From: Candidatus Spyradenecus sp.
GTDB taxonomy: Bacteria; Verrucomicrobiota; Kiritimatiellia; RFP12; DVOR01
Length of the DNA stretch: 64,000 nucleotides
Reading direction: 5' to 3'
Assembly: GCA_051884775.1 (NCBI GenBank)
Contig: JBJEVY010000058.1
Span: 2,655-66,654 of the forward strand
The notes under the pieces: model-generated
Databases searched by the model: none
The model's input: the letters and a program-made list of their open reading frames with translations, nothing else
What the model was told of the DNA's origin: nothing
In this document: piece by piece, positions 17,201-57,390 of the stretch
Layout: every line of letters begins with the position of its first letter
Numbering within the stretch: position 1 is the stretch's first letter
Program-made: the position numbers and the translations under genes

Positions 17201-17456
17201 CATTAGCGCCCGGATAGGTGCAGCTCACCTGCACCGTCGGCGGTGCCACCTCGGGATACTGCTCAATGGGCAGCGACTTAATGGCCAGCGCGCCCACCAG
17301 CGTCATCACAATAGCGATGACGAAGGCGAAGCGCGGCCGGTTCACAAAGATGCGCGAGAAGATGGACTTCGTCGGCAACTCCTTGAGCGCCTCTTGGATC
17401 ACCCGGCGCTCGTTTGCCTCGATCTCCTCGAGGCTCATCTTCCGTTCTTCTGCCAT
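14223..17456 (-). CDS. RND efflux transporter permease (HAE1/AcrB-like)
   Basis: 1077 aa. N-terminus [27 protein letters not shown], with 12-TM architecture and large periplasmic loops. Confidence 0.95.
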
Positions 17457-28087: not shown

Positions 28088-29377
28088 TTAGGGCCGGGGC
28101 GGGGGATTGTTCTTCTTCCCCCACTTCGGCGGCTTGGGCATAAAGGGATTTTCGCCGGCGGCGGAGGCCTGCGCCACCTCGATGGCCGTTAAGGTGCCGG
28201 TAATCACCGTGTCGCCCGGCTCCAACGCCTCGCAGAGGATGGCCGTATTCACATCATCGCTCACCCCCGCCTGGACCGCCATCGCCACCGGCTTGCCGGC
28301 TTCATCTTGCACAAAGAGATAATCCTTCCCCGCGAGTTCGGCCGGCTCCTGCCACCCCTCCGGTCGCCACCGCAGCGCCGTCACCGGCACCAAGAGCGAC
28401 TCGGCCGGCGACTCGGCCAAGATGAAGGAGACATTCGCCGTCAGGTAGGGCAGGAGCAGGTTCCCGGGGTTCTCGGTGGTCACCTCCACCGTGTAGGTGA
28501 CCACGTTGGAGGTCATCGACGCATTTAGCCGCACGCGCCCGACCTTCCCCATAAAGGTCTTGCCCGCGAAGGCATCCACCGTAAAGCGCACCGCCTGCCC
28601 CACCTGAATCGAGCCAATATCCGCCTCGTTAACCGGCACCCAAATCTCAATCTTCCCCAGGTCCTTCGCCACCAGGAAGAGCGAGGGCGTGCTCATCGAA
28701 GCGGTCACCGTCTGCCCAATATTCACGCGCCGATCGATGATAATCCCATCGACCGTCGAGAGAATATCGCAGTACGACAGGTTCCGCTCGGCCTTCTCCA
28801 GCTGCGCCTGCGCCTGCTCAATCGCCGCCTCCGCCTGCTTCACCGAAGCTTCCCCCACATCCAAGTTCGCCTCCGCCGTCTCGTAGGCGCTCTGATAGGC
28901 ATCGTAATCCTTCTGCGAGAGCGCGTCCCCCACACCCAACGCCTGCGCGCGCTTCCAATCCCGCTCAGCCTGACGCAACTTCGCGCCGAACTGCACCACA
29001 TCGGCCTTCGCCCCGGCCAACTGCGCCTGCGCCGTCGTCAGGTTCGCCTTGGCAATCGTCACCTCGGCCTTGTAGGTGACGTCATCAATCCGCGCGAGCA
29101 GCTGCCCCTTCTTCACCTCCGAGCAATAATCCACCTCGCGCCCGGCAGTGTCGACCCCAAAGGCCATAATCTGCCCGGTAATCTGCGCGCCAATATCAAT
29201 CAAATCCTCCGGTTCAATCGTCCCCGTCGCGCGAATCGTCTGCGTCACCTGCCCGCGCGTCAGCTCTGCCGTCTTGTAGGCAATCGATGCCACCTGCTCC
29301 TGCGGCCGCGACCAATACCACCACGCCCCGCCGCCAATCGCCGCCAGCACCAATAACAAGCCAATACCCTTTTTCAT
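28088..29377 (-). CDS. MacA-like periplasmic adaptor (HlyD/MFP family)
   Basis: Trimmed to MKKGIGLLLVLAAIGGGAWWYW (cat at 29375-29377). The track's N-terminal extension only translates the 22-bp tandem repeat. Coiled-coil hairpin plus beta-barrel pattern. Confidence 0.9.
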   Translation of the reverse strand: MKKGIGLLLVLAAIGGGAWWYWSRPQEQVASIAYKTAELTRGQVTQTIRATGTIEPEDLIDIGAQITGQIMAFGVDTAGREVDYCSEVKKGQLLARIDDVTYKAEVTIAKANLTTAQAQLAGAKADVVQFGAKLRQAERDWKRAQALGVGDALSQKDYDAYQSAYETAEANLDVGEASVKQAEAAIEQAQAQLEKAERNLSYCDILSTVDGIIIDRRVNIGQTVTASMSTPSLFLVAKDLGKIEIWVPVNEADIGSIQVGQAVRFTVDAFAGKTFMGKVGRVRLNASMTSNVVTYTVEVTTENPGNLLLPYLTANVSFILAESPAESLLVPVTALRWRPEGWQEPAELAGKDYLFVQDEAGKPVAMAVQAGVSDDVNTAILCEALEPGDTVITGTLTAIEVAQASAAGENPFMPKPPKWGKKNNPPPRP

Positions 29378-29463
29378 CGGCAGAGCCTCCAATTCCAAAT
29401 AAACCCAAATCACCCCCATTATACAACCACACACTCGCATTTTCCAGCAGAAAACGCCTCCCC

Positions 29464-29617
29464 CTCGGGCAGGTTGACCTCGCACCTCGGGCGGGTTCGC
29501 CTCGCACCTCGGGCGGGTTGACCTCGCACCTCGGGCGGGTTGACCTCCGACCTCGGGCGGGTTCGCCTCGCACCTCGGGCGGGTTGACCTCCGACCTCGG
29601 GCGGGTCCGCCTCTCAC
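29464..29617. repeat. Tandem array of seven 22-bp units (ctcgggcgggttgacctcgcac)
   Basis: Seven contiguous units with 1-4 substitutions each and no spacers. It lies 87-240 nt upstream of the macA-like start. Confidence 0.95.
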
Positions 29618-33000: not shown

Positions 33001-36000
33001 GACCCTGCCCACGACGATTGCGCTGGAGAGCGGCACGGTCCTGACGGTCACCGCGAGCTTCTCGGGGGCCTACACCATCCCCAGCGGTGCCACGGTCGTG
33101 CTCGATGGCACCACGGCCATCACTTCGGCTAGCGCCCTGACGGTGAATGGCGCGCTCAAGACCCAGGGCACGGTCACCCTCTCCGGGGCGAATGCGGTTC
33201 CGGCGGGCGGCACGCTCACGGTCGAGACCGGCACGCTGACGCTAACGGCAAGCGATCGGAGTCTTGCAGGTACCGTCAATATTGCTGCGGGGGCCACTTT
33301 GGTCAATGTGACGGGCGATGCGCTGAAGTATGATGGCTCGCCGGTGGTGAATGTGCGCGGCACGCTCGACATGCGCTCGACGCGTTGGACGGTCGGTAGC
33401 GCCAACACGCTGAATGTCTACGCCGGAGCGACCATCCAGGGCGCGGGCGATTCGCATGGCGCCTTGGACTTCTACAACAGCGCCACGCACACGCTCAATG
33501 TGCCCAACGAGGGGGATGCCTCTCAGCCTGTCACCATTTCGGCCAAGCTGCGGTTGCGGCAGTCGGGCGTTACCCTCAAGTTCAATATCGCCCTTGGGAG
33601 TGCCAAGGTTAACCTCACGGGCATTGTGCGCGATGTCGGCAGCCTGGAGAAGGCCGGCTCGGGCTCTTCGCGCCTGATTCTCTCGGGCGAGAATAAGGTT
33701 TACACCGGCGCCACGACGGTCACAACTGGCTACTTGGACCTGGTGGGCGGGTGCACGCTCGCCACCTCTGGGGTGACGGTTGCCAGCGGCGCGGCGGTTA
33801 CCTTCCAGGCCGACGACGCTTCCACCGAGACCACCTACACCACGCCCTTCGCCCTCACCGGGCGGATGGATAAGGAGGGCGCGCACAGCGTCATCCTCTC
33901 CGGGGCCATCACGGGCGCAGGGGCGGTGAATGTGAAGAACGGCGGCCTCACGCTCGATGCCTCGGCCGCCACGGCAGAGGCCCCGACTGCGGTGGCCAAC
34001 CCGATTGCCGTGGGTCTGGATAGCGGCACCGCCGGCACGCTCACGGCTAAGGGCTTCCTTACCCTCTCGAATGCCTCCAATACGGTGAAGGCCACCGGCA
34101 CGCTCGCCATCGCCTCGGGCACGACCGTCCTCACCACCGCGGGTTCCGCTGGCGGCATCAAGGGCAAGCTTGCCATCGCCTCGGGCGCAACGCTCCAGTG
34201 CGGCATCGATGATGCGCCGGATTACAACGGCTCCCCGAGCTTCGAGATTGCCGGTACCCTGGAGATCACCGGCACTGCCCGTTGGTCCATCCCCAGTGGA
34301 GCGACCGTCACCCTGCACGAGGGTGCCCTGCTGAAGGGCACGGGCCCCGAGAGTGGCAGTAACTACGCCTTCGACTTCTTCGATGGTGGTGCCATTACCG
34401 CTGATGGCAACGCGACCATTGAGGCCACTGTGGGAGCCCATAAAGCCGGCCAAACGCTGACACTCACCCAGACGGCTGAGACGATGACAACAATCACGGG
34501 CGAAGTGCGTAATTCGACGACCCTGAAGGCCGCCGGCACCGGAACGGTGGTCTACGCCCCTGCTGCTGGGGTGGCGGCCACCTCCTCGCCGTTGGTTGTG
34601 GATACAGGCGCGACCTTGCAACTCTTGCCCGCTGCCGCCTTCACCCTCAATGGCACGGTGACGGGGGCGGGGACGCTGATGGTTGGCAATGGCACGGCGG
34701 CGACGGCGGTAACGTTGGCGGTGGCGGGCAATGGCGCGAATGTCACGGTCTCGCCCAAGGCCTCGCTGACGGTGGCGACCGGCGCCGGAAGCGAGGACGC
34801 GAACAAGTCCTTCGCCGATGGGAAGACGGTCACGAATAATGGCACGCTAACGCTGACCTCTGGCTATGGCTACTTCAATATTGCCGGCACCGGCAAGACG
34901 GTGGTGCCTGGTAGCGACTTCCTCTTCGGGATTGGCGGCGCGAGTGCCGAGACGCCCTTCTCGAATGGTCTGGAGGTGCCCGCTTCGGCAAACTTCCGCA
35001 TCCGCCCGTGGAATCGGAATTGGACGCTTATCGCCATGGGTACGGCGGCGGTGAATGGCTCGGTATCCGTGGATGGTGGCGATCACACGGTGACGCTCCA
35101 GATCGCGGCGGATACGACCCTCACAGGCTCGAGTACCTTCGCCATCCCGGTGGCCTTTGAGAATGCGGCCACGGCCACGATGGCTTCGGACGCGACCTTC
35201 ACCTTCTCGAACGCCCTCACGGTGCCGAAGAATGTCACGCTTCCGGGCACGGTGACCCTGGGCGAGAATGCGGTGCTCTCCGGCGCGGGTGAACTTTCGG
35301 GCACGGTGACGCTGAGCGCGGGCGTGATTATCAACGCGACCGAGTCGACCGCCTCGGGCTATCTCAAGTTGACGGGCACGGTGACCTTGGGCGACACGCT
35401 GAAGGTCAGGGCCGCCAAGCTGACGAATGTGCTCGATGTGCCGACCGCTGCCGGGTTAGACCTCGCAAAGGTCTCGCTGACGGACGATAGCACCGTCCCG
35501 ACAGGCGCCAAGCTGATGACCTCGGTCTTTACAACGGAAAGCACCTCGGTAACGACCCTGAAGTTCTTTGTCCCGCCGATGGTGCCGGAAGCGCCCGCCG
35601 AGAGTCCGCGCGAGGCTGACGTGGATACGCAGATTGCTCAGGCCGCAGAGACCTACGCCGGGTGGGGGATGGTCATCTCCGAGGTGACCGCAATCACCGG
35701 CACGGGCTCCGATGGCACCGGCACGCGCGAGATTAACGGGGCCTCGCTCTTCGAGAATGTCCTCACCCTGGCTCCTGCAGCAGTGAAGGATGATGGCACC
35801 TACACCGCCACGGCGACGGTTGCCTACGACTTCGGCTTAAGCGCGATGACGGTGAAGTCGGCGCAGTTGGGAAGTGACACCGCCGCGCGGAACTATGTGG
35901 TGCTTTGCGCGAAGGTCTCTAACGGCACCGACACGGGCGATAGCGCGGCAGACTATGGCACCACGACCACTGTCTCGCTCCTGCTCGGCGGCAAGGTCTG

Positions 36001-36175
36001 CGACGGCACCGCGGGGAATGGTCCTGCGGCGACGGAACTCACCGACGAACAGTTGACGGCCCTGGGCCTTACGCGCGGCAAGGGCGAGAAGTGGTTCGCC
36101 GTGCCGATGGCCGACTTGGCAACTGGCACGAGTGCCTTCACCGTGCGTGCTTCGCAGACGACCGCCACCCCTTAA
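30044..36175 (+). CDS. Giant secreted protein with autotransporter-associated beta-strand (PATR) repeats and an N-terminal LamG-like region
   Basis: Signal peptide MRTITRLALAALAAVCASSTLVAAPA. Recurrent K(L/Y/A)G(A/S)G(T/S)L.L(S/T)G motifs (KYGAGTLVLSG, KLGAGTLSLTG, KAGSGSSRLILSG). The composition is T/G/A/S-rich and beta-helix-like. I see no beta-barrel or sorting-signal motif at the C-terminus. Confidence 0.85.
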   Translation: MRTITRLALAALAAVCASSTLVAAPAASWTNFGGGITNDDGTITYYGGNTAYAATAHGSRQTDGSVLLTEGGIEIVLPSAQAQVSVIVDMSAPPETGDYDILAVDTGTYTMAARSKSRTLNLLYITNSNSNETDRTSNGGTAVWGDAERRWVTMTHQNNLNGTSVYLDDAAAAPNDSGLRWSSQSISKVKIGAAGQKIYAIYLYTTRLTQADIATARAENTAALAVPLSFTFSRAGLTSAGNTMEVLQVGGGAAKGLTFTATLGTNATRVTEGSETDETAFFKSVTSGSTLLTTNGYPMVQCKFSTTGSKDNEGWSIYLPFTPSAETTVTRVCPQLFAVNASGNVQSDSKVFGYTVTLYSGSVDETTVSSATALATATGTTDSLTQTLVNTQAAAFADKVTLNADTAYTMKLAVSDSSTGGGSYSGIGGVVFSSVIGRTVSGEGTWSNDWTAGSAPADGSAVELTVSDAATLSMDAAASLSSLTVLDGSADSSASLTFSGEQSLTSSATTLNVSTDVSAITASLGAVTLAGGKTLTVGKSSSIVSLSGTGGTVSVDATAESIAYDATATMLEIYRTYGGKVIFKGANANGVTLPYAIGKGTMAAKFAFDGGTHTFQYGVNSSQVLFGPQGTDADPTLDILDGATLNFCTKDLSGWTPQTNAEKVILRVRAGSTLNFTQYSSNTAYFNNRIVLDNNATVNIQNTNGNFRVNGGVRAEGTAQLAMLGGETETAADVTGNNITLASDQTPKGMGVSVGENATLTIANAIVGNSGCTFAKYGAGTLVLSGTFTASPITVAAGVLGFSVASGERTVGVNISGSGTVKKLGAGTLSLTGTVSTPVEVAEGTLDLGTQRSLTLGGIAEGATLKLTATDVELANCAITFSTTMGTAPAKERFTVVKADGTAVTLTAEPTVADGTLTVTLPQSGGMITATGNWSEAGVSGETVVYVRGGESAESAITVTLDADLSGYTQIAVIGHVKFVTTETQATLPTTIALESGTVLTVTASFSGAYTIPSGATVVLDGTTAITSASALTVNGALKTQGTVTLSGANAVPAGGTLTVETGTLTLTASDRSLAGTVNIAAGATLVNVTGDALKYDGSPVVNVRGTLDMRSTRWTVGSANTLNVYAGATIQGAGDSHGALDFYNSATHTLNVPNEGDASQPVTISAKLRLRQSGVTLKFNIALGSAKVNLTGIVRDVGSLEKAGSGSSRLILSGENKVYTGATTVTTGYLDLVGGCTLATSGVTVASGAAVTFQADDASTETTYTTPFALTGRMDKEGAHSVILSGAITGAGAVNVKNGGLTLDASAATAEAPTAVANPIAVGLDSGTAGTLTAKGFLTLSNASNTVKATGTLAIASGTTVLTTAGSAGGIKGKLAIASGATLQCGIDDAPDYNGSPSFEIAGTLEITGTARWSIPSGATVTLHEGALLKGTGPESGSNYAFDFFDGGAITADGNATIEATVGAHKAGQTLTLTQTAETMTTITGEVRNSTTLKAAGTGTVVYAPAAGVAATSSPLVVDTGATLQLLPAAAFTLNGTVTGAGTLMVGNGTAATAVTLAVAGNGANVTVSPKASLTVATGAGSEDANKSFADGKTVTNNGTLTLTSGYGYFNIAGTGKTVVPGSDFLFGIGGASAETPFSNGLEVPASANFRIRPWNRNWTLIAMGTAAVNGSVSVDGGDHTVTLQIAADTTLTGSSTFAIPVAFENAATATMASDATFTFSNALTVPKNVTLPGTVTLGENAVLSGAGELSGTVTLSAGVIINATESTASGYLKLTGTVTLGDTLKVRAAKLTNVLDVPTAAGLDLAKVSLTDDSTVPTGAKLMTSVFTTESTSVTTLKFFVPPMVPEAPAESPREADVDTQIAQAAETYAGWGMVISEVTAITGTGSDGTGTREINGASLFENVLTLAPAAVKDDGTYTATATVAYDFGLSAMTVKSAQLGSDTAARNYVVLCAKVSNGTDTGDSAADYGTTTTVSLLLGGKVCDGTAGNGPAATELTDEQLTALGLTRGKGEKWFAVPMADLATGTSAFTVRASQTTATP

Positions 36176-42933: not shown

Positions 42934-43959
42934 TTAGGCTTCGCCGATGTGCCGAGTGTAAAGCGCGTCGAGGCGTTGAAGGAGCGGCTTCCAGAGGCGC
43001 TGGGTGAGGGCGAGGAGCGCGCGGCGGGGGAGGTCGATCGCGAGGCAGAGGGCAAAGATGGGGAGCGTGGCCAGAGGGTAGGCGATGAGGCGCGGGCAGT
43101 GAAGCGCGTTCATCACGGCCTGTTCAAGGGGCTCAAAGGCGGGGAGGATGACGCGGTTGCAGTGGAGGAGGTAGACGGCGAACATTGAGGGACCGAGCCA
43201 AAGGGCCACGCGGCCGATCCAGTCCGGCCAGGGGATGCGGCGGAAGAGGAGGAAGGTGCAGCCGGAGAGGAGGGCGGCCACAGGCGAAGCGTAGGCGTAG
43301 AAGCCGCCGATGGAGAGCATCATCAGCACGCCGAGGGCCATGTAGAGGCGGGGACCGACCAGGAAGCGGTCCCAATCTCCCAGGCGCCAGAGTCGGGCGA
43401 GGGTGTAGATGCCAAAGAGGGTGAGACCAGCGTAGGAGTCGACGCCGGGGGTTTTCGGGAAGATGCCGCCGATGCGCGGGATGGATTGGGCAAAGGCCCA
43501 GAGGAAGGTGATGGCCAGCGGCGGGAGGAGGATGGGCAGGCGTTTGGCGGGTGGCACCCAGGTGAGGACGGCATCAACGAGCGGGGCCAGGAGCATTAAG
43601 AGGGCGTAGGCATTGAGGAACCACGGGCCAACAAGCAAGCCACGTATGAGTTTGAGGGTGGCGAGGTCAAGCGCGAGGGGATAAGCGTCGGTCAGCCAGC
43701 CGAAGCAAAAAATGAGCCCGCCGCAGAAGAGGGCGAGCGCGTAGAGGCGGATGAACTTGGAGGGGCGGAAGGTGAGGCCATACCAACCGCTGAGGAAGGC
43801 GAAGCCATCAACACATGAGTGAAGGAGGCGCCACGGCCAGAGGGCGCGGTCGCCCGCGCTAAAGGTGATGCTGTGGAGCAGGCAGATGCCGAACATCAGG
43901 GCCACGCGGTAGACTTCCGGTGCGGCCTGGCGCGGTCTTAACGGGGGGGCAACAGTCAT
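42934..43959 (-). CDS. Acyltransferase family 3 membrane protein
   Basis: 341 aa, about 10 TM. N-terminal motif RVALMFGICLLHS..., like acyltransferase_3 (OafA-type) proteins. Confidence 0.7.
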   Translation of the reverse strand: MTVAPPLRPRQAAPEVYRVALMFGICLLHSITFSAGDRALWPWRLLHSCVDGFAFLSGWYGLTFRPSKFIRLYALALFCGGLIFCFGWLTDAYPLALDLATLKLIRGLLVGPWFLNAYALLMLLAPLVDAVLTWVPPAKRLPILLPPLAITFLWAFAQSIPRIGGIFPKTPGVDSYAGLTLFGIYTLARLWRLGDWDRFLVGPRLYMALGVLMMLSIGGFYAYASPVAALLSGCTFLLFRRIPWPDWIGRVALWLGPSMFAVYLLHCNRVILPAFEPLEQAVMNALHCPRLIAYPLATLPIFALCLAIDLPRRALLALTQRLWKPLLQRLDALYTRHIGEA

Positions 43960-48287: not shown

Positions 48288-48332
48288 CGTTTTCACCTCG
48301 TTCTCTGTCTCTTTCACGGCTGACCTTTTGTG

Positions 48333-48356
48333 ACACTATTAAACACTTTCCCCCAC
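48333..48356 (-). promoter_or_regulatory. Candidate MraZ operator: three GTG(G/T) direct repeats with a 10-nt period
   Basis: Minus strand reads GTGGGGGAAAGTGTTTAATAGTGT, with GTG at positions 1, 11 and 21. It lies 46-69 nt upstream of the proposed mraZ start. Confidence 0.5.
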
Positions 48357-48768
48357 CTCCGCGTCAAGTCTTTTCTCTCCCGAGGGGTATTTTTTTGCGC
48401 TTTTGGCCCTTTTCAGGGGATTCTTCCGCCAATTTCACCCCGATCCCGACCGAAGTCGGGGCCCATCGCGCCGAAATAAAGGAGCCCCTGCGTGTACCGG
48501 ATGTGAGAGAGCCCGGTCGTTCTCCACTACAAGAGGGGTTATAACCAAACGAAAGGAGCCTCCTATGGACACAAATGTCGTAACCCCTGTTATCATTCGT
48601 ATGGTTAACACTTTGCTTGATAACATGTTTGGCATCCCAAAGGGACCATTTCATGCGCGCCCATCGTCCACCAATGCCGTACTCCTCTCGCCCGCGCAAC
48701 ATCCGGAATCGGGACCCAAAGGGTCATCTGCACTGGGGCTGTGGTATTCCCCAATTAGCGTACCGCTT

Positions 48769-48809
48769 GTACCCCAATTGGGGTACCGAGCGTTCCCCAG
48801 CTGGGGAAC
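48769..48809. other. Two adjacent perfect 18-bp palindromes (GTACCCCAATTGGGGTAC and GTTCCCCAGCTGGGGAAC)
   Basis: Read directly at 48769-48786 and 48792-48809. Consensus is GTnCCCCAnnTGGGGnAC, with a 23-bp centre-to-centre distance. Confidence 0.9.
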
Positions 48810-49152
48810 AATCTTCGCCCGGGTCCTGGAAGATTTTAACCTCAGACAGGAAAACTGATAAGAGCCAGACTTATTGGAATTAAGAGGCTCACTTATTTCC
48901 ATTAAGAGGGCCTCTTAATTGTCGCACGCGGGGCGGGCGCAAATTGAAACAGCCCCGGATTTGACTCAGCTCCCAAGGCGAGCGGTCCGTTCTCTATAAG
49001 TGGTAGAAGCCCTGTCGAAAGTGGCATATACATAGCAAGCCCCACATACTTGAAACATCTGAGATTGTGCACTCTTTGTAGATATGATTGTCACCATAGA
49101 CGTTCTTCTTAGCCCGGAAGTTCTCGGGGTAAGGGAATTGAGAAAACGGGGG

Positions 49153-49180
49153 TTGACTTGATGGGGGGGGGTGGTAGACT
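49153..49180 (+). promoter_or_regulatory. Candidate promoter of the five-gene operon with a G9 tract in the spacer
   Basis: ttgact (49153-49158), tgat, ggggggggg (49163-49171), tgg, tagact (49175-49180). The spacer is 16 nt, and the element lies 75 nt upstream of ATG 49255. Confidence 0.45.
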
Positions 49181-49254
49181 ATGTGCTGTTGAGTAGATAG
49201 CAGATAGCAGACTGAATCGAGCTCTCTGCGAAATAACGTGAAAGAGGTACAGCC

Positions 49255-51714
49255 ATGAGACGGTTATTGGATTGGTATTGGCAGGAAGGTAAGGAGCGGC
49301 CTAAGGTATGGCGGTTGCCGGAGGTCGGTGTTGGGCAGATGATGGAGGCTGTGCGAATTTTTGAGCAGGTGACAAAGGCGCGGGGGGAGATGCAGAGGGG
49401 ATGTGTGGCCTTTTGGGGGCCATCGCAGGCCGGGAAGTCATCACTACTCTCGCATTATTTAGATGCGATGGATGCTCAGGGGAGTGCGTTGACGTGGCAT
49501 GCGGGGGAGAGGGTACGTTTTTCGGCAGACCCGTTGGGGGTCGACCGGGAGGGGGTGGTCTTCAATCCTTTTCGTGGGGGAATGGATGCCTCGGCGGTGG
49601 TGACGCGCTTCTATCTGCCAACAGATCCAGAGGTTGTGAAGCCGGAGGCGCCGGTGGAGGTGGTGCTGGCGGAACGCCAACAAGTGTTGCACGCGTTGGC
49701 GTTGGGTTATCACCTGGAGTGCCGTCGCACAGACATGGCGTGGGATTCAATAACCTTGCGCGAGCGATTGGCCGAGCCAAGCGTAAAGGCAGATCGCGAG
49801 GCCTTTGAGCTGCTCTACGAGGTGTGCGAAATCTGCGAGGCGCTGGAGCCGGAACTCTCGCGTTTTGCCGCCTTCCGGGAACGGGCGACGATACGCCGGC
49901 GCATCCTCTCTTCAAACTATGTGGATGATGTGCAGCAGGCGTGGGCGCTGGCGAAGTGGTTGCTGTGGGATGGAAACGAGCAAATCTCGGCGCTGTTGGA
50001 ACGGCTACTGCAGATGCGCGCTTCGTTGGTGGAGACCTTTTTGGGTCCGGGGCGGCGGCTCTTCGTTTCGATGCGGGTGGCTGCGTTACTGGAGGATATT
50101 GGGGTGATGGAGTTTGCCGCAAGCGGTTCGGCGCCGGCGGCGGGGTGGGCGCCGGGCGGCGCGACGGAGATACAGGGCAAGGCAAAGGATTTGCTGTCTC
50201 TGCAAATGGTTAAGCACGAGTCGGGGGCCTACCTCTTCGTCGATGGAGAGATGTCTACCGGAGGCGAATCCAGTCGTTTTGAGGCGCGCTATTTTGGGCT
50301 CTTGCAGGCGCTGGTTGGGGAGATGCGCATACCTGTCCGCCCGATGTTGAACGAGGTAGCCAAGCCCTTTCTTTCTTTTCTGGAGCGCTTTAATCTGCTG
50401 GATATTCCTGGCGTGACGAACAAGGCAACAGGCGATGCGCAGGGGAGCGGTAATCTCTTGGACCTGAGCGAGGTAATTGAGGAGACCGTGTTGCTACGGC
50501 GGGTTTACAAGTCAGGCAAGACCTTGGCGGTGGTACACGGCCAGGCGGCGCAGGGCTCAATCGACAGCTTTGTGGTTTTTGTGGACCTGGAACACGCGGG
50601 GGGGCTGCCGCGCCCGGGAACATTGACCAACGGGATTAAGGCATGGCTGAGGCCCTTCGGCGGGGAGGGTTTCTCGCCGCCGTTGCCCTTGCCGCTCTAT
50701 CTGAACTGCTCGCTCTTCGGGAAGTTGCAGGATAAGGTGGCTGCAGCTATGCAGAGTGGCGGGCTGCAGGATTACTGCCGCAAGGCGGAGGCGCTGGAGT
50801 TCGTCAAGCGTGGCTGCGCAGAGGTCGTCTTCACCTCGTCGTGCTTTGTGCCGTGGCAGAATGCCGGGGTCAAGGCGATGCTGGAGGCGGACGCAAGCTT
50901 CCGGCAATGCTTTCTGCGCGGCCGGGCCGAGGAGTCGCTCAATGCGGTTGTGGGCGACGGGCTGGGGACGGACTATCTCTTCGAGCGCCTGGCGCGAGAG
51001 GTTTCACCCCAGAGGCGCTGGGAACACTATGGCCGGATCGAGGCGCAGTGCCGCGAGACCTTGCGGCGCATCGTTGCGCAACAGTTGCCTTCGGGCAGCG
51101 GCGAGCGGGCCTTGGCCTGTCGCGAGGCCGTCCGCCAGGTGCTCGCCCGGCTCCAGGCTATGGGCCTCTCGCCGGAGAATGGCGAGGTAACGAAGCAGCT
51201 CTCAGATTTCATCAAGCGGGTCTTCGTGGTTGACGCGACGGAACTGGAGCCCTTGCCGACGCAGCCACATCTGCTCTCGGGCGGGGAGCTAAAGCAGTAT
51301 CTCATGCGGCAGGTTGTCGCGTGGGTCGGTCAACGCAAGGCGATGCTCTCCGGGGATGTTGCGGTGACCTGGTTATTAGGCGAAGCGCAACTGCCTCTCT
51401 TCTTGCAAGCGGTGGCGACGATCGATCAGGAGCGTTGGGCCCGGTGGTTGCAGGAAGTTTTCTGGCAGCACAATCCGAAGGTTTCTCGCGTCTTCCTAGC
51501 AATGGCGCTGAATAACGCCTTTTTGTGGGGGGACTACGCCCGCAAGCGTGCGGCGATGGGCCAGGGGAGTGCCTACGAGATGCTCTGTGCACCCTTTGTT
51601 GCGCGTTTGGAGCAGTTGGCTCAGTGCACACCAGTGCAGGCGGACGGCCGCCCAACAACGTTGCCCGGCGATGCTAGCCTGGCGGCGCTCCAGGGGACGT
51701 TGGGGTTGAAGTAA
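49255..51714 (+). CDS. Gene A: P-loop NTPase with dynamin-type G1/G2/G3 motifs (SrfC-like?)
   Basis: 819 aa. G1 is FWGPSQAGKSSLLS (aa 53-66), the switch-I-like motif is SAVVTRFYL (aa 113-121), and G3 is FNLLDIPGVTNKATGD (aa 379-394). These are followed by TLAVVHG and FVVFVDLEH strands. The C-terminal ~370 aa are helical. Confidence 0.6.
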   Translation: MRRLLDWYWQEGKERPKVWRLPEVGVGQMMEAVRIFEQVTKARGEMQRGCVAFWGPSQAGKSSLLSHYLDAMDAQGSALTWHAGERVRFSADPLGVDREGVVFNPFRGGMDASAVVTRFYLPTDPEVVKPEAPVEVVLAERQQVLHALALGYHLECRRTDMAWDSITLRERLAEPSVKADREAFELLYEVCEICEALEPELSRFAAFRERATIRRRILSSNYVDDVQQAWALAKWLLWDGNEQISALLERLLQMRASLVETFLGPGRRLFVSMRVAALLEDIGVMEFAASGSAPAAGWAPGGATEIQGKAKDLLSLQMVKHESGAYLFVDGEMSTGGESSRFEARYFGLLQALVGEMRIPVRPMLNEVAKPFLSFLERFNLLDIPGVTNKATGDAQGSGNLLDLSEVIEETVLLRRVYKSGKTLAVVHGQAAQGSIDSFVVFVDLEHAGGLPRPGTLTNGIKAWLRPFGGEGFSPPLPLPLYLNCSLFGKLQDKVAAAMQSGGLQDYCRKAEALEFVKRGCAEVVFTSSCFVPWQNAGVKAMLEADASFRQCFLRGRAEESLNAVVGDGLGTDYLFERLAREVSPQRRWEHYGRIEAQCRETLRRIVAQQLPSGSGERALACREAVRQVLARLQAMGLSPENGEVTKQLSDFIKRVFVVDATELEPLPTQPHLLSGGELKQYLMRQVVAWVGQRKAMLSGDVAVTWLLGEAQLPLFLQAVATIDQERWARWLQEVFWQHNPKVSRVFLAMALNNAFLWGDYARKRAAMGQGSAYEMLCAPFVARLEQLAQCTPVQADGRPTTLPGDASLAALQGTLGLK

Positions 51715-51730
51715 TAGCAAGGAGAAGATT

Positions 51731-54574
51731 ATGATTGAATTTGATTGGGAGCCAACGGTCCTGAGCAATACGGGGTGCCAATTCCGTTTCTTCCCGGTGT
51801 GCATGTTCAGGTCGCCAAGTAGTGACTTGCCAGACTTGGCCAAGGCGGAGGTGCTGTGGGATGACATAGCGGGATTTCAGGAGCGCCACCAAACATTTGC
51901 GCGCAGCGAGGCGTTTGCCGACTATCTGACTTCGACGGTGATGAGCACGCTCGCCGCAAAGCGTTGGAGCGCTTGGCCAGAGTGCCCATTCTTGAAGGTT
52001 CGCTGGACGAGTAAGCGCTTCACCCATCACGGTGAGTACGAGTTCCTCGGCGTGGAGTTGGCCATCGAAACGCTTTCGCCAGGCGATGCCTTCCAGCAAT
52101 GCGGATTTTGCTACAAAGAAGAGGCGCTCCAGGACGATCGACGTGCGCACGCCGCACCCTTCGCCTCCATCTACCAATCGATTCGCGATGGAGCATACTA
52201 TCCGCCAACGGGAACGGCCCCCCTTCTCCTCAAACTGGACGATGTCGTCGCCGTCAATATACGCGTGGGCTTTTTGCAGCAAACGACGGCCTCTGGGCCG
52301 CTGGGAGCGCACTTGGTCATCGATATCGGTAACACGCGCACCTGCGCGTTGCTGTTGCGAGACGATCCTTCCGGGATGCTGGACCGGGTGGATGCCATTC
52401 GCAGTTGCTGCACGCCGGTGATGCTTGATCTGCCAATGCGCGCAGAAGCCGTTACGCGAGCCAATTTACGGGATGTGGACAACGGCATTGCCTCGTCATG
52501 GATTCTTCTCCATCAGCCGGAGTTCGATGAGGCGACCCCCTCGTTGTTGCAAGGGCGCTACGTAATTGAGAGCGTGAAGCACACGCCAGAGCGGCGGTGG
52601 TCGTTCAGAAAGGTCACAGATGAACTGCGCAATACGCGCGTGGAGTGGCGTGTACCAACAATGTTTGTGCGTAACTCGCCAGTCTTGCTGGGGCGTGAGG
52701 CTGGGCAGCAACTTTCACTCAAGACTGTGGCCACGATGATTGAGGAGGGACTGCAGATTCAGCAGAGTTCACCCAAACGCTACTTCGCTGAACAGCAGCG
52801 TACCCAACAGGATTGGAGCATGGTGCCCAATCCCTGGGAGGACCGGAGCACGACCTCTGCCTCCAAACTACAGGCAGACCTGCTTTACTGGATGAGTGAA
52901 CGCGGAGAATTCGTGGATCCCGACGAGACAGCCGTGCAGAACCGTCCGCTTAAGGCTCCGCCCCACCCGAACTATCCGCGCTCAGCCACCTTCATCTGGC
53001 TGCTGGTGGGTATTTTGGAGCGCGCGTGGGACCAGTGCAATCGGTTGAAGTCTGCTGCCGGTAAGTTTGTTCCTTACGAACTGCGCAATGTGATGGTCAC
53101 CTTTCCCTCGGGCTGGACGCGCGATGAGGTGCAGCTCTACCGCAAGCGTTGCGAGGAAGCGGTCCGCCTCTTTGCACGTAGCAATTTCCCCAAAGGGACG
53201 GAGATCCATCTAAATATGGATGTGGACGAAGCGGTGGCCAGCCAATTGCCCTATGTATTCTCCGAAATCCACAAGTTTAATGATAACGCGCAGCAGTGGC
53301 TGGCCCTGGCCGGCAAGTGCCGCGAGGGTGACGATCCAGGATTTCGCGTGATGAACCTGGACATCGGCGGGGGCACAAGCGACATCTCAGTGGTGGAATA
53401 CACCTGCCTGCCGAGCGACGACGGGCGCGGGGATGTGGATCTGCAGCCTACGCTCCTCTTTCGCGATGGCTATGCCTCGGCCGGCGATGACCTGGCACGG
53501 CAGATCCTCTCGCAAATCATCTTCCCAGCAATTGAGAGCGTGGCCGCGCAGGAAGGGGCCGAGTTAAAGCGCTACTTCACTGGGGCGGCCACTTCGCCAG
53601 AACTGTGCACCCGACGCGCTAAGATGTTGCGCCTGTGCTTGCTGCCGCTGGTCTACTGCATCCTCGGAGCCATCGCCTCCGGGGCTCCGGAGGGTACCAT
53701 CACGTTGGAACGCGCAGGCATCGAGCCTGCCCTCTGGGATGAGCTCTATCGCTATCTCTACCCGACGGAGGATGTTGTGCCAGGTTCTTGGCAGCAGATT
53801 GTCGGTGTTGGCGGGCCCGGGCTAGCCTATGATGCTCAGGCTGTTAACCGCCTGATCGTCGCTCAGTTTCAACGGACCTTTGAGAATGTGGCCCTCATCG
53901 CCGCACGGCAGGATGTCGACCTCTTCCTGATGAGTGGCAAGACCTCCGAGCTGCCCATTCTGCACGAGATGGCCATCGAGGTGCTGCCGTTGACCCAGGA
54001 GCGCATCATCGCCACGCGCCACTATTGCGCCGGCGATTGGTACCCCTTCGTCAAGACCGACGGTTATGGGCGGATTGTCGACAACACCATCAAGGATGCC
54101 AAGAGCATCACGGCCGTGGGCGCTGCCCTGAACTTCTTGCTCGCCAACGAGATGGTCTATGGCTGGAAGATCGAGAAACCGCGCGTCGTTCCGGCCATCG
54201 AGAGCGAGTGGGGCTTCAACGAGCAGTTCAAGCGCCCCAACGGCCAGGCCTTCCGCTTCGATGCACAGGGGCAGGTCACCGTGCCGGTACGGCCGCGTTT
54301 GGATCTCATCGCCCGCCGTTTCGCCAAGGGCGCCACCCCTTCGGCGGTCTATTGCATCCAGTCGCGGGATCCCGATGCTCCGGCACAGAACATCCGTCTG
54401 AAGGCCACGCTTCGTCGCGGCCGCGATGAAGAGACCCAGGCCGAGTTCCTGGAACTGGTCGCCCTGACCGAGCACACCCCGCAGGGTGAGCGTGACTGTC
54501 TGCACGCCTTCGAGCTGGCCGTCTGTCAACAGGAAGGCGACTTCTGGCAGGATACCGGCCGCGTGATTGATTGA
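51731..54574 (+). CDS. Gene B: large Hsp70/actin-fold ATPase (SrfB-like?)
   Basis: 947 aa. Phosphate-1 is LVIDIGNTRTCALLL (D198), phosphate-2 is VMNLDIGGGTSDISVVEY (D544), and the adenosine motif is VDLFLMSGKTSELPIL. RBS aaggag lies 7 nt upstream, and the gap to gene A is 16 nt. Confidence 0.65.
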   Translation: MIEFDWEPTVLSNTGCQFRFFPVCMFRSPSSDLPDLAKAEVLWDDIAGFQERHQTFARSEAFADYLTSTVMSTLAAKRWSAWPECPFLKVRWTSKRFTHHGEYEFLGVELAIETLSPGDAFQQCGFCYKEEALQDDRRAHAAPFASIYQSIRDGAYYPPTGTAPLLLKLDDVVAVNIRVGFLQQTTASGPLGAHLVIDIGNTRTCALLLRDDPSGMLDRVDAIRSCCTPVMLDLPMRAEAVTRANLRDVDNGIASSWILLHQPEFDEATPSLLQGRYVIESVKHTPERRWSFRKVTDELRNTRVEWRVPTMFVRNSPVLLGREAGQQLSLKTVATMIEEGLQIQQSSPKRYFAEQQRTQQDWSMVPNPWEDRSTTSASKLQADLLYWMSERGEFVDPDETAVQNRPLKAPPHPNYPRSATFIWLLVGILERAWDQCNRLKSAAGKFVPYELRNVMVTFPSGWTRDEVQLYRKRCEEAVRLFARSNFPKGTEIHLNMDVDEAVASQLPYVFSEIHKFNDNAQQWLALAGKCREGDDPGFRVMNLDIGGGTSDISVVEYTCLPSDDGRGDVDLQPTLLFRDGYASAGDDLARQILSQIIFPAIESVAAQEGAELKRYFTGAATSPELCTRRAKMLRLCLLPLVYCILGAIASGAPEGTITLERAGIEPALWDELYRYLYPTEDVVPGSWQQIVGVGGPGLAYDAQAVNRLIVAQFQRTFENVALIAARQDVDLFLMSGKTSELPILHEMAIEVLPLTQERIIATRHYCAGDWYPFVKTDGYGRIVDNTIKDAKSITAVGAALNFLLANEMVYGWKIEKPRVVPAIESEWGFNEQFKRPNGQAFRFDAQGQVTVPVRPRLDLIARRFAKGATPSAVYCIQSRDPDAPAQNIRLKATLRRGRDEETQAEFLELVALTEHTPQGERDCLHAFELAVCQQEGDFWQDTGRVID

Positions 54575-54595
54575 CTAACCGAAAGGAGATAGACA

Positions 54596-55828
54596 ATGGA
54601 GACCTTTGCCCCTTTTTCCCCCATAAGCACCCCCGTTCCCCCGAGTCTGCAAGGGCAGGATGGCGAGCGTGAGGTGCCGCCGATGTACCCGGTGGCCTTC
54701 GTGCCAGCCCCGGTCCAACCCATCGCCCCTGCATCGGCCCCTGTACCGGCTCCGGCGGCGGAGCCCCTGCCGCCTGCAGCCGTGGAGGCTGCGCCCCAGG
54801 TGGAGACCGTGCCGACGGCGGCGGACGCTGCGGCCGAGGCCAATGCGGAGATCGAGTGTCTGAAGGCGCAGTTGGCCGAGGCGCAGAAACAGTGTGCGGA
54901 TGCCGAGGCCCGGATGCAGAAGGCCTGCGAGCACCAACAGGCATTGAAGAAGGCTTATGCCGAGGAACTCGATCGTTGCCGGGTGGATTGCGAAGCACAG
55001 ATGAAGCAGCACGTCGAGGACCTCCTCCGTTGCAAGCGGCTGGGCATTGAAGATCCCGAGTTCATTCAGGACTTCTTCGAGCGCTATGCGCAGATGGTAC
55101 GGGCCGAGCGCGAGCGAGACAAGGCGGCTTGCGAGCGTGACAAACTCCAGGCTCAGTTAGAGGAGAAGGACCAAGAACTGCAGCGGCAGAGCGCGCAATA
55201 CAAGCAAGCGGAACGGCAGAATCTGACCTTGCGAGAAGAGGCAGAAAAACTGCGCCAATCCTTGGAACTTCAGACGCACACAGTGACCCAAGAGCGTAAC
55301 GCACGTCTGAGCGCAGAGGCCAAAGTTCAAACAACCCGTCAGCAATTGGAGGAATTGAGGCGTAAGCAGGGCGGTTGGGAAGCGCTGTATGCCACGTTGT
55401 TCCAAGAGGGCTGGGGTGACTGTCGGGAGGTCGCGGCATTGGGCGATGCGCTCTCTGGGAAGATGACCGCCGGGGGGGAGTTGGACCCTCTGGCGCTTCA
55501 GGCCGCGCTTGCACTGGCCGCTTGGCGCGCGATGGTACTGGCCGTTGAGGTCCCTAACCGCATTGCCCTGTGTCATCTGGAGTTGCTCGGGCGGCAATTG
55601 GCGCAGTTCTGGAATGCCGCCCCTGTACTCCTTGAGCGCCTAGCCCAGGTCCTCAACGGCTGCGAGCTGATGCGTAAGCAGGAGATTCGCCTAGAGGTGC
55701 CGGCGATAGACAGCGAGGTCGATACCTCCAAGGTTATACACCGGCAGAATGGTACCTATGTCAAGAAGGTGCTTGTCTGGGGGATTGTTCATAAGGGTAA
55801 ACGCCACCTCAAGGCAGAGGTCGAGTAA
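54596..55828 (+). CDS. Gene C: Pro-rich N-terminus, long coiled coil and GrpE-like C-terminal domain
   Basis: 410 aa. Residues 1-75 are P/A/V-rich, and residues ~80-260 have a heptad-rich E/Q/K/R/A composition. The C-terminus ...EVPAIDSEVDTSKVIHRQNGTYVKKVLVWGIVHKGKRHLKAEVE resembles the GrpE beta-domain ending (...V..V.QKGY.L.GR.LRPA.V.V). Confidence 0.5.
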   Translation: METFAPFSPISTPVPPSLQGQDGEREVPPMYPVAFVPAPVQPIAPASAPVPAPAAEPLPPAAVEAAPQVETVPTAADAAAEANAEIECLKAQLAEAQKQCADAEARMQKACEHQQALKKAYAEELDRCRVDCEAQMKQHVEDLLRCKRLGIEDPEFIQDFFERYAQMVRAERERDKAACERDKLQAQLEEKDQELQRQSAQYKQAERQNLTLREEAEKLRQSLELQTHTVTQERNARLSAEAKVQTTRQQLEELRRKQGGWEALYATLFQEGWGDCREVAALGDALSGKMTAGGELDPLALQAALALAAWRAMVLAVEVPNRIALCHLELLGRQLAQFWNAAPVLLERLAQVLNGCELMRKQEIRLEVPAIDSEVDTSKVIHRQNGTYVKKVLVWGIVHKGKRHLKAEVE

Positions 55829-55831
55829 GCG

Positions 55832-57373
55832 ATGGTGGAAGCCCCGTACCCGTGCGAGATCGCACTTGTTGATGGTCGGCGGTTACTCCGTTGCGGCTTG
55901 CAGAGCTATGTCGATTATCCTTTCCCGGCGCTGTTGCAATCGCTGAACGAGGAGATTGCCCCCGCCTCGCCGCTCTTTCCGTTCCTGACGATCTTGCCTG
56001 GCACGCCTGAAAAACTCCGTTACGCTCTCGCGCGCGCCGGTGTCGCCGAACATTCCTCTCTGCGCAATCGCGCCTTGCCGAGGGCGTGTCTGCGCCAACT
56101 CCAGGAGGCAATCAATCGCCTCCACGCCTGGGCGGAGGATCCGCAGGTACCGGGCGGTACGCAGGATTTCTGCCGCAATTTCGCATTGCCCGACCCTGTA
56201 CTCGACCCGGAGGCCTACCAACTCTCCCGTGGTCCAGGCGGCTGGCGGGTACATGTCCTCTGGGGTTATGAGAGCGATGAGGCGCCTGCCATCAAGCCCC
56301 TCTCCGCCCTCTCCGCCCATTGGGCGGATAGCGCCGATCGTGTCGCTTTGGCCGAGCGTTTCCGCAAGGCGCGGCCGCGGTTCGTCCTGCCGTGGCGAGC
56401 CTGCGTGCGCCGTCTGTTTGTGTGCCTGCTCATCCTTTTCCTCGGAAGCAGACTGTGGCATTATGCCTCGGAGTGCGTGGAGGGCATGGAGCGACTCCGC
56501 GCTTATCGGGCGAGCGCATTGGTGTGCCTGGAGGCTATGCAGCAGTCGCTCAATGAGACCCAGGCGGAGCTGGCTGCGGCGCAGTCCCGTTGCGAGGCTC
56601 AGCAACGAGATCTGGAGGCTGCGCACTCCCGACAACAGGAGGCCGAGGCACGCGTTGCGACCTTGCAGGGCGAACATACGGCCTTGCAACAGCAATGCAT
56701 AGGTCTGGAGCGAAATCTGGAGGCTGCGCGTTTCCAGCGGCAAGCGGCCGAGGCGCGCGCAACGACCTTGTTGAAAGATCAAGAGGCTATAAGAAACAAT
56801 GTCTCTGAACTGCAAGACAAACTTACCTTGGCGCAAACCGGCCAGCAAGATGCCGAGATGCGTGTCGTTATGTTGCAAGCCGAATGCGATTCGCTGCGTG
56901 AGGAGCTCTCGCAGATTAAATCTGGCCAAAGGAGTATGGTTAAGCAAGTTCGCGATGCGTTAGACAAATGTGAATCGTTACAACATAAATGCGATGTGCT
57001 ACAAGACGCGCTTACCTCTACGCAGTCTAGCCAGCAAGAAGCCGAGACGCAGGTGACCACCTTAAAGGGTGAGCTCAACGCATTGAAGACGCAATACGCC
57101 AAACAGGTGCGTCTCGGTAAGCTGTGGCACACAAAGGCAACGCAATTGGAGCAACAGAACAAACAACTCCAAGACCTCAAGGCGCGGCATCAAGCCCTGG
57201 AAGATAATCTGAAACAAGAACGGCAACAATCTGAACTCTACCGTCGGATTTGTGTAGGACTGATTGATACACTTCGACGTGCAGATCCTAATCTTCCAGA
57301 GGTGAAAAACTTGCAGGAAATCGATGCCTATCTCTCCAAACGAGATGAACGTTGGTGGAAGCTGTGGAAGTAG
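55832..57373 (+). CDS. Gene D: single-pass membrane protein with an N-terminal domain shared with gene E plus a 35-residue-repeat coiled coil
   Basis: 513 aa. A basic stretch then a TM segment (RFRKARPRFVLPWRACVRRLFVCLLILFLGSRLW). Repeats are LEAAHSRQQEAEARVATLQGE, LEAARFQRQAAEARATTLLKD, LTLAQTGQQDAEMRVVMLQAE and LTSTQSSQQEAETQVTTLKGE. The gap to gene C is 3 nt. Confidence 0.6.
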   Translation: MVEAPYPCEIALVDGRRLLRCGLQSYVDYPFPALLQSLNEEIAPASPLFPFLTILPGTPEKLRYALARAGVAEHSSLRNRALPRACLRQLQEAINRLHAWAEDPQVPGGTQDFCRNFALPDPVLDPEAYQLSRGPGGWRVHVLWGYESDEAPAIKPLSALSAHWADSADRVALAERFRKARPRFVLPWRACVRRLFVCLLILFLGSRLWHYASECVEGMERLRAYRASALVCLEAMQQSLNETQAELAAAQSRCEAQQRDLEAAHSRQQEAEARVATLQGEHTALQQQCIGLERNLEAARFQRQAAEARATTLLKDQEAIRNNVSELQDKLTLAQTGQQDAEMRVVMLQAECDSLREELSQIKSGQRSMVKQVRDALDKCESLQHKCDVLQDALTSTQSSQQEAETQVTTLKGELNALKTQYAKQVRLGKLWHTKATQLEQQNKQLQDLKARHQALEDNLKQERQQSELYRRICVGLIDTLRRADPNLPEVKNLQEIDAYLSKRDERWWKLWK

Positions 57374-57390
57374 CTGGAAGGAGCAACGAG

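Follow-up and report, generated by a model that had tools for sequence, protein, structure and literature searches.

An SrfB-family protein with an Hsp70-type nucleotide-binding core, encoded in a rearranged Srf cluster of Candidatus Spyradenecus

The window analysed here is a stretch of 64,000 nucleotides from a gut metagenome-assembled genome (MAG) of Candidatus Spyradenecus sp., a genus placed in Lentisphaerota of the PVC group. The window contains a cassette of 5 same-strand genes, which we designate A to E in the order of the cassette; all coordinates follow the numbering of the window (Table 1). Gene B, the second of the 5, encodes a divergent and correctly annotated member of the known SrfB family, and its nucleotide-binding core is of the Hsp70 type within the ASKHA superfamily, not of the actin, MreB, or sugar-kinase type. 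Gene A encodes an SrfC-family protein that looks dynamin-like in its predicted fold, and the operon is a Srf cluster with a rearranged gene order. With some reserve, we lean towards a reading in which the Hsp70-like and dynamin-like proteins form a cytoplasmic pair that acts on the membrane anchors of an envelope-associated system.

Gene B is a divergent member of the SrfB family

The Pfam SrfB profile (PF07520) matched gene B with an E-value of 2.2e-59 and a score of 201.9 bits (cut-off 27.1), residues 308–817 of the protein being aligned with positions 320–842 of the 992-position profile, which bears out the SrfB-like identity proposed in a preliminary description of this DNA. At E ≤ 10, the only other Pfam match of gene B was a 19-residue match to EutA on the phosphate-2 motif; HSP70, MreB_Mbl, FGGY, and actin were not matched, and the N-terminal and C-terminal domains each had no Pfam match when taken alone. 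A scan of NCBIfam returned nothing for genes A or B. The NCBI deposit that is identical to gene B (MGN0886212.1) bears the name "MAG: virulence factor SrfB [Candidatus Spyradenecus sp.]". Since NCBI already gives this name to the exact protein, the family was known and gene B adds one more member to it.

The family is large. A word-indexed search found 62 homologues of gene B, and 1.84 billion representatives, searched exhaustively with a profile, contained 1,940 SrfB clusters (50% identity) at E ≤ 1e-3, of which 994 reached E ≤ 1e-30. Nearly all of the clusters found have lengths of 900–1,100 residues and align with the whole of the profile (positions 1–932). Enterobacterial pathogens have members, as do Akkermansia of the gut and other PVC bacteria, and many plasmids of Klebsiella and Rahnella carry them.

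An alignment of 52 sequences, which includes the Yersinia and Pectobacterium SrfB proteins, revealed that residues D198, G200, N201, R203, S346–R350 (including K349 and R350), D499, E500, Q505, D544, G546, G548, T549, D551, D730, and G736 are invariant, and that Y351 is conserved in at least 90% of the sequences. The conserved positions run from G15 to G943 of gene B. Such conservation and the number of homologues go far beyond chance, and gene B is a real gene under selection. The N-terminal peptide EFDWEPTVLSNTGCQFRFF (residues 3–21) had been described as reminiscent of SrfB N-termini, and the resemblance is real: at least 90% of the sequences retain G15 and Q17, and W79 is invariant across the SrfB family.

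Gene B shares with the canonical SrfB proteins (PF07520 and COG4457; Salmonella, Yersinia, Pectobacterium, and Xenorhabdus) the succession of an N-terminal domain, an expanded Hsp70-type core, and a C-terminal domain, together with the motifs DxGNxR, SSPKRY, DEA..Q, DIGGGTxD, AGD, GK/RxS, WYP, and DxKxxxxxGA. These motif blocks are identical, nearly residue for residue, in the SrfB proteins of Yersinia and Pectobacterium, whereas gene B as a whole has 21–25% identity to those proteins over 50–65% of the length and is somewhat shorter (947 residues compared with ~1,020 residues in canonical SrfB). An SrfC-family neighbour is always present, in the cassette of gene B as in the canonical loci.

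The nucleotide-binding core of gene B is of the Hsp70 type

The AlphaFold2 model of gene B, computed from the 52 sequences, has a mean predicted local distance difference test score (pLDDT) of 89.7 and a predicted template modelling score (pTM) of 0.92. Comparison of this model with the PDB by Foldseek revealed that the top 50 matches listed are all Hsp70/Hsp110 chaperones or entries containing them, BiP, DnaK, Ssb, and Hsp110/Sse1 being among the matches (best E = 1.8e-14, probability 1.00), and that no sugar-kinase or cytoskeletal family occurs among these 50. The target-normalised template modelling score (TM-score) against isolated Hsp70 nucleotide-binding domains ranges from 0.62 to 0.67. 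In the BFVD database, 16 of the 18 matches at E ≤ 0.001 were Hsp70 homologues or unnamed entries; the other 2 were a Pandoravirus threonylcarbamoyladenine synthase and Gp506 of Bacillus phage G. A sequence search of the PDB with gene B alone gave no match at E ≤ 10; with the profile of the gene B family, DnaK was reached at E = 0.019, and FtsA and MreB at E = 0.8–4 on the phosphate-2 motif.

The residue-level correspondence comes from an hhalign comparison of the SrfB family profile with the nucleotide-binding domain of Escherichia coli DnaK, for which a sequence entered by hand was used. Residues 2–384 of DnaK and residues 192–811 of gene B align collinearly (P = 9.4e-5), and the paired segments (DnaK/gene B) are IGIDLGTTNS/VIDIGNTRTC, AIKRLIG/SSPKRYF, INEPTAAA/VDEAVASQ, DLGGGTFDIS/DIGGGTSDIS, LGGEDFD/SAGDDLA, VGGQTRMP/MSGKTSELP, and NPDEAVAIGAA/DAKSITAVGAA. 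The 2 proteins have the nucleotide-binding fold in common, and the Hsp70 catalytic set D8, K70, E171, D194, and T199 corresponds to D198, K349, E500, D544, and T549 of gene B. Because these paired catalytic residues are invariant in the 52 sequences, gene B is assigned to the Hsp70 type; their conservation also suggests that the protein is probably catalytically competent.

These results agree with most of what the preliminary description had said of the core, namely that gene B is an Hsp70/actin-fold ATPase with 3 readable ASKHA motifs spread over ~550 residues: the phosphate-1, phosphate-2 (LDIGGGTSDISVV), and adenosine (LFLMSGKTSELPIL) motifs all lie in gene B at the quoted sequences, and their measured spread is 549 residues. 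Two points of that description needed revision. The catalytic aspartates D198 and D544 were named correctly, whereas the phosphate-2 threonine is T549 and not T550, because residue 550 is a serine. Likewise, the ~200 residues that follow the adenosine motif do not form a single C-terminal region: ~65 of them, up to about residue 811, still belong to the nucleotide-binding domain and include the segment DAKSITAVGAA (residues 789–799), and only the remainder makes up the beta-rich C-terminal domain.

Structural comparison between gene B and the Hsp70 chaperones (DnaK, BiP, and Hsp110) revealed that (i) gene B has an additional N-terminal domain; (ii) its nucleotide-binding core has ~620 residues instead of the usual ~385, that is, ~235 residues are inserted; (iii) the largest insertion lies at about residues 215–315, with smaller insertions in the IIB-equivalent lobe and in the segment that joins the adenosine motif to the last helix, where they include an invariant GxWYP motif; and (iv) no substrate-binding domain is recognisable by sequence, and the model has no helical lid. 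Gene B has no signal peptide. A hydrophobic helix, MLRLCLLPLVYCILGAIASGA (about residues 631–650, positions 53621..53680; helix 623–649 in the model), lies inside the IIB-equivalent lobe and is the sole segment of gene A or B above the Kyte–Doolittle threshold for transmembrane helices; it could be buried or face the membrane.

Table 1. Features of the cassette and of gene B, in window coordinates.
Feature	Position	Strand	Description
Non-coding lower-GC gap	48318..49254		~940 bp; left of the cassette
Gene A	49255..51714	+	SrfC-family P-loop NTPase (nucleoside triphosphatase), 819 residues; directly upstream of gene B
Gene B	51731..54574	+	ATG start, 947 residues; SrfB-family Hsp70-like ATPase
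N-terminal beta-rich domain of gene B	51731..52300	+	Residues 1–190; confident in the model; SrfB-family-specific
Phosphate-1 motif VIDIGNTRTCA	52316..52348	+	Gene B residues 196–206, including D198; aligns with DnaK IGIDLGTTNS
SSPKRY motif	52766..52783	+	Gene B K349-R350; hhalign equivalent of Hsp70 catalytic K70-R71 (DnaK AIKRLIG)
DEAVASQ motif	53225..53245	+	Gene B E500; hhalign equivalent of Hsp70 NEPTAAA (E171)
Phosphate-2 motif LDIGGGTSDISVV	53357..53395	+	Gene B residues 543–555, D544/T549; matches DnaK DLGGGTFDIS (HMMER, hhalign)
Adenosine motif LFLMSGKTSELPIL	53921..53962	+	Gene B residues 731–744, including G736; aligns with DnaK VILVGGQTRMPMV
C-terminal all-beta domain of gene B	54164..54571	+	Residues 812–947 (~136 residues); from DSSP of the AlphaFold model
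Gene C	54596..55828	+	410 residues; Pro/Ala-rich N-terminus, coiled coil, conserved C-terminal domain; cytoplasmic
Gene D	55832..57373	+	513 residues; SrfA-like N-domain, hydrophobic segment at about residues 190–210, ~300-residue coiled coil
Gene E	57391..59592	+	733 residues; SrfA-like N-domain, transmembrane helix at about residues 211–231, linker, trypsin-like serine protease

Gene A encodes an SrfC-family protein with a predicted dynamin-like fold

The Pfam profile Virul_Fac (PF10139) matched gene A with an E-value of 2.1e-8 and 33.4 bits (cut-off 28.1), and the product of gene A is named "virulence factor SrfC family protein" at NCBI (MGN0886211.1). The Walker A motif GPSQAGKS (residues 55–62) and the DIPG motif (residues 383–386) are invariant, canonical SrfC included. 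Gene A has neither a signal peptide nor a transmembrane helix.

In the Foldseek comparison of the AlphaFold2 model of gene A (pLDDT 86.1) with the PDB, the top matches were SynDLP (E = 1e-6), IniA (6e-4), and BDLP (5.7e-3), with probabilities of 0.96–1.00, and the later matches belonged mostly to the dynamin superfamily (mitofusins, EHD, Drp1, MxB, OPA1, and dynamin); a profile of gene A searched against the PDB sequences gave noise only. Judged by its model, the SrfC partner looks dynamin-like. Like the bacterial dynamin-like proteins SynDLP, IniA, BDLP, DynA, and LeoA, gene A is predicted to combine a G-domain with a long helical stalk, and it has a P-loop and a DxPG switch-II motif. Unlike them, it has ~320 residues between the P-loop and the DxPG motif, and it matches none of the models of PADLOC-DB. 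No clear NKxD (G4) motif was found in gene A. Searches of a full-text library returned no paper that pairs a dynamin-like protein with an Hsp70-like ATPase, and none in which SrfB is connected with Hsp70 or SrfC with dynamin.

Genes D and E encode SrfA-like membrane proteins

Genes D and E have a common N-domain of ~150 residues (BLASTP E = 7e-10) with the motif LPDP..PE.YR...L.VLWG. The remainder of gene D gave coiled-coil matches in Pfam and NCBIfam. Gene E, whose start codon at 57391 is preceded by AAGGAG, matches Pfam Trypsin_2 (E = 1.7e-17), and its His (TNYHV), Asp (DLALLEL), and Ser (GYSGGP) motifs are intact. Members of the D/E family in general consist of the N-domain, a transmembrane helix at about residues 170–240, and a variable C-terminus, which is a Trypsin_2 domain in 9 of 52 members, a PKD domain in 3, and a TonB_C, OmpA, RcpC, or Ig-like domain in 1 member each. 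Because these are periplasmic domain types, the N-domain is predicted to be cytoplasmic and the variable part periplasmic.

In layout (N-domain, ...WG motif, transmembrane helix, and variable C-terminus), genes D and E are certainly SrfA-like, and judged by profile comparison they are likely to be remote relatives of SrfA. Alignment by hhalign of 34 PVC D/E N-domains with 7 canonical SrfA-type sequences yielded 184 collinear columns (P = 3.4e-4). After removal of the transmembrane helix, the P-value was 7.5e-4 and the score 28.1, compared with 15.2 for the reversed template and at most 19.1 for 40 column shuffles. An earlier comparison with 2 SrfA sequences had given P = 0.0035, so that the result improved with 7. 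With BLASTP, the Pectobacterium SrfA had no significant match in D or E, and a word-indexed search with the D/E N-domain profile could not reach SrfA, since it returned just 2 close relatives.

Gene C, which lies between gene B and these 2 genes, gave coiled-coil noise only in Pfam and NCBIfam, and its family was located with an iterated hidden Markov model (HMM).

The cassette is an operon that recurs across the PVC group

The 5 genes are separated by gaps of 16, 21, 3, and 17 nucleotides. Gene B starts 16 nucleotides past the stop of gene A, with an AGGAG-type ribosome-binding site 7–8 nucleotides upstream. Promoter-like sites with a weak consensus only are present at 49059–49088 and 49153–49180 in the non-coding gap; a terminator scan found no convincing terminator inside the operon, and Rfam revealed no RNA family over 47.8–60.2 kb. 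On one side of the cassette lie the minus-strand genes mraZ-rsmH-ftsI and on the other sbcD-sbcC; the guanine–cytosine (GC) content of the stretch that holds it (48318..59860) falls to 0.56–0.61, compared with ~0.65 around it.

A scan of a genome collection with the clade profile found 70 loci, nearly all in the PVC group: Kiritimatiellae, Lentisphaeria/Victivallales, many Verrucomicrobiota including Akkermansia, and a few Planctomycetota. The cassette recurs in ~60 PVC-group loci, in an order unlike that of enterobacterial srfABC. Profile searches run on open reading frames (ORFs) from all fetched loci revealed a gene A homologue directly upstream of gene B in 62 of the 63 loci with enough upstream DNA, a gene C family member adjacent to B on its downstream side in 52 of 65, and 1 to 3 copies of a protein with the D/E N-domain downstream of B in 48 of 50. 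The closest relatives of gene B (~53% identity) are found in Kiritimatiellae MAGs, whereas another Candidatus Spyradenecus genome (L045) has just a 28%-identical version. Together with the GC dip, this distribution suggests that the cassette was horizontally acquired.

In one related locus, with a 31%-identical relative (L004:15761–18426), there is no trypsin-type protein, and the cassette is followed by PNP_UDP_1 and a pair of AAA_21 and DUF4276 genes in a PARIS-like layout. In another (P0030, GCA_016648615.1), a 975-residue relative of gene B is followed by a 766-residue protein, 2 VWA proteins, a PP2C phosphatase, and a Ser/Thr kinase, a neighbourhood that echoes the PpkA/TagQRST setting of the srf genes of Deltaproteobacteria (PMC3608642).

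Elsewhere in the window, an ORF of 2,043 residues (30044..36175, plus strand) has no Pfam family at E ≤ 1e-4, and predicted ORFs of 594 residues (7783..9567, plus strand) and 341 residues (42934..43959, minus strand) have no Pfam match. Three minus-strand genes encode transport proteins: an AcrB-type RND transporter (14223..17456), a MacB/FtsX-type permease (25948..27315), and an HlyD-type membrane-fusion protein (28088..29617). Over 20 kb separates all 3 from the cassette, and no link to it was seen.

Comparison with canonical srfABC loci

The order in the window is SrfC-like, SrfB-like, C, D, and E, whereas in canonical loci (L005, L006, and L078) it is srfA-srfB-srfC. Since D and E are SrfA-like in layout and probable remote relatives of SrfA, the window operon is a rearranged Srf cluster, with the order C-B-x-A-A' instead of A-B-C. 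The Pectobacterium locus (L005) consists of an SrfA-like paralogue, SrfA, SrfB, SrfC, 2 unknown genes, an ABC ATPase, an FtsX permease, and an FGE-sulfatase protein; the layout is similar on a plasmid of Cereibacter (L078) and in a locus from a metagenome (L006), each of which also has a serine protease. In the window operon, no canonical SrfA was found by NCBIfam, and no TagQRST-like ABC transporter or FGE-sulfatase gene lies beside gene B.

The canonical loci encode several paralogues in which an SrfA-type N-domain ends in "...DG.PVL..WG" and is followed by a transmembrane helix. One of these paralogues in the metagenomic locus carries a trypsin domain, as gene E does. On the Cereibacter sphaeroides plasmid (CP031752.1; L078:5052–6937), a 246-residue ORF with an SrfA-like N-domain and a terminal transmembrane helix overlaps the start of the "serine protease" by 46 nucleotides in another frame; these overlapping ORFs may be a frameshifted or mis-split gene that, like gene E, joins the N-domain, a transmembrane helix, and a protease.

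Possible function and alternative explanations

In the reading towards which we lean, proteins A and B would work in the cytoplasm, at the inner membrane, as a pair driven by nucleotides. The pair would bind the SrfA-like N-domains of the single-pass inner-membrane proteins D and E, and nucleotide hydrolysis would be coupled to assembling or controlling the periplasmic modules (the protease and the coiled coil) or to remodelling the membrane. The outcome would be an envelope-associated machine that is neither a secreted toxin nor a classical folding chaperone. Family membership, fold, the conserved catalytic residues, and the conserved architecture of the operon are shown by the analysis, whereas the ATPase activity, the physical contact among A, B, and D/E, the N-in/C-out topology, and the biological role are the parts of this reading that we infer. 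Such a logic has precedents in PilM–PilN, FtsA–FtsN, and MreB–RodZ, in which actin-fold ATPases dock on the short cytoplasmic tails of single-pass membrane proteins. The cassette likewise has a cytoplasmic ASKHA protein encoded beside proteins that cross the membrane once and have a conserved, putatively cytoplasmic N-terminus and a putative periplasmic working part. By contrast, PilM, FtsA, and MreB are of the actin/FtsA type and gene B is of the Hsp70 type, so that they are related at the superfamily level only, and the corresponding interaction within the cassette is a putative one.

Phenotypes and neighbours of canonical srf genes are consistent with this reading. In Salmonella, mutants in srfB and srfC still swim but no longer swarm, and FlhDC controls the operon (PMC4219756), which fits a role at the cell surface or envelope. 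TagQRST-like and PpkA genes adjoin the srf genes in Deltaproteobacteria and Xenorhabdus (PMC3608642, PMC6950479); these recurrent envelope-signalling neighbours, together with the VWA, PP2C, and Ser/Thr kinase genes at the P0030 locus, also fit an envelope system.

Several points weigh against the envelope reading. The A–B and B–D/E contacts are inferred from gene order only, and we know of no SrfB experiment that shows ATPase activity or partners. The TM-scores of gene A to dynamins are low (0.2–0.27), as is expected for flexible multi-domain proteins. As regards the SrfA link, the NCBIfam SrfA_fam model (NF040486) did not match genes D or E at E ≤ 1, the HMMER profile of the PVC D/E N-domain reached the Pectobacterium SrfA at just E = 0.022, the PVC D/E HMM found nothing in the Cereibacter locus, and hhalign gives the pairing of the D/E N-domain with SrfA a probability of 38%. 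Xenorhabdus SrfABC has been reported as a cytotoxic, insecticidal toxin (PMC6950479). Finally, the GC content around the cassette is lowered and its flanks vary, in some cases with Fic, PIN, or PARIS-like genes, as would equally befit a defence island.

This last point leads to the alternative of an anti-phage or conflict system, in which A and B would sense infection and release a variable effector (a protease or a nucleoside phosphorylase), as in abortive-infection islands. The GC dip, the flanking genes that change from one genome to another (L001 has Fic and PIN, L003 a radical-SAM gene), the PNP_UDP_1 gene and the AAA_21/DUF4276 pair behind the L004 cassette, the combination of one common N-domain with many C-termini in the D/E family, and the nearest relatives in another phylum, which suggest horizontal transfer, are all in keeping with such a system. 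We nevertheless regard it as unlikely. In PADLOC-DB 2.0, A and B had no match (E ≤ 0.01), C and D gave coiled-coil noise, and gene E matched just the protease part of RT-Protease models (RT-Protease_XI); the 50,697 phage records contained no relative. Moreover, the TonB_C, OmpA, PKD, and Ig-like C-termini of the D/E family are periplasmic binding or structural domains and not typical toxins, and the presence of the cassette in most of the Akkermansia and Verrucomicrobia loci retrieved rather resembles a trait of the whole lineage. A tripartite SrfABC toxin, secreted and directed at eukaryotic cells, would accord with the "virulence factor" name of the family and with Xenorhabdus stockiae, where cytotoxic and insecticidal activity is reported to require all 3 Srf proteins (PMC6950479). 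For the window we judge it very improbable, given that the folds of A and B are those of cytoplasmic nucleotide-driven machines with conserved catalytic residues, that neither protein has a signal peptide, and that the SrfA-like partners are anchored in the membrane; the host, known from a gut MAG, belongs to Lentisphaerota, relatives occur in commensal Akkermansia and environmental Verrucomicrobia, and the Salmonella phenotype is a swarming defect (PMC4219756).

The 2 other alternatives concern gene B itself. As a classical Hsp70 chaperone paralogue, it would bind unfolded polypeptides through a C-terminal substrate-binding domain. The C-terminal domain is indeed all-beta, and the best Foldseek matches are full-length docked Hsp70s (BiP, ATP-bound DnaK, and Sse1), with ~780 aligned columns compared with ~630 for isolated nucleotide-binding domains; because of these longer alignments, the C-terminal domain of the model may superpose on the docked beta part of the substrate-binding domain. 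The gain in TM-score from adding the substrate-binding domain is, however, marginal (0.55 × 520 compared with 0.67 × 393), and an hhalign comparison of the C-terminal domain with the DnaK substrate-binding domain gave P = 0.37, which upholds at the sequence level the earlier remark that the C-terminus does not look like that domain. With neither a Pfam HSP70 match nor a helical lid, and with no DnaJ or GrpE domain in the 5 operon genes or the flanking genes scanned, we hold a chaperone to be quite improbable. An actin-like, ParM/MreB-like filament former or an ASKHA sugar kinase is scarcely credible: the ASKHA motifs are common to these families, and FtsA and MreB gave the weak profile matches over the phosphate-2 motif mentioned above, but the significant fold matches of gene B are all Hsp70s, the Hsp70-specific Lys-Arg motif is invariant, and the Pfam families MreB_Mbl, FGGY, and actin are not matched. 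The sugar-kinase, cytoskeletal, classical-chaperone, and secreted-toxin readings were considered and rejected for the reasons given above.

The envelope reading can be extended to the Srf cluster in general, as a hitherto unrecognised machine in which the Hsp70-type SrfB and the dynamin-like SrfC act on the cytoplasmic tails of SrfA-like proteins that cross the membrane once. The inner membrane would be remodelled or repaired by them, and periplasmic modules (in the window the trypsin-like protease and the coiled-coil protein) would be turned on or off. We put this extension forward tentatively, as a possibility that is rather doubtful in its full form.

Implications

The family name "virulence factor" has been in use since 2000 without a mechanism. 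SrfB and SrfC are a widespread family pair, and the window holds a compact, differently ordered version of their cluster that clarifies the parts list: a dynamin-like NTPase, an Hsp70-like ATPase, and SrfA-like membrane anchors with exchangeable periplasmic domains. Gene B itself is an ordinary member of its family; what is new lies at the level of the system, in a predicted dynamin-like SrfC, an Hsp70-like SrfB with a conserved catalytic lysine, and modular SrfA-like anchors. If the general envelope machine is real, the cluster would be a prokaryotic counterpart of the cooperation between eukaryotic Hsc70 and dynamin-type membrane machinery, and the "virulence factor/toxin" label of SrfABC would have to be re-interpreted. 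An unexplained annotation is thereby turned into a testable hypothesis of an envelope-associated, nucleotide-driven machine.

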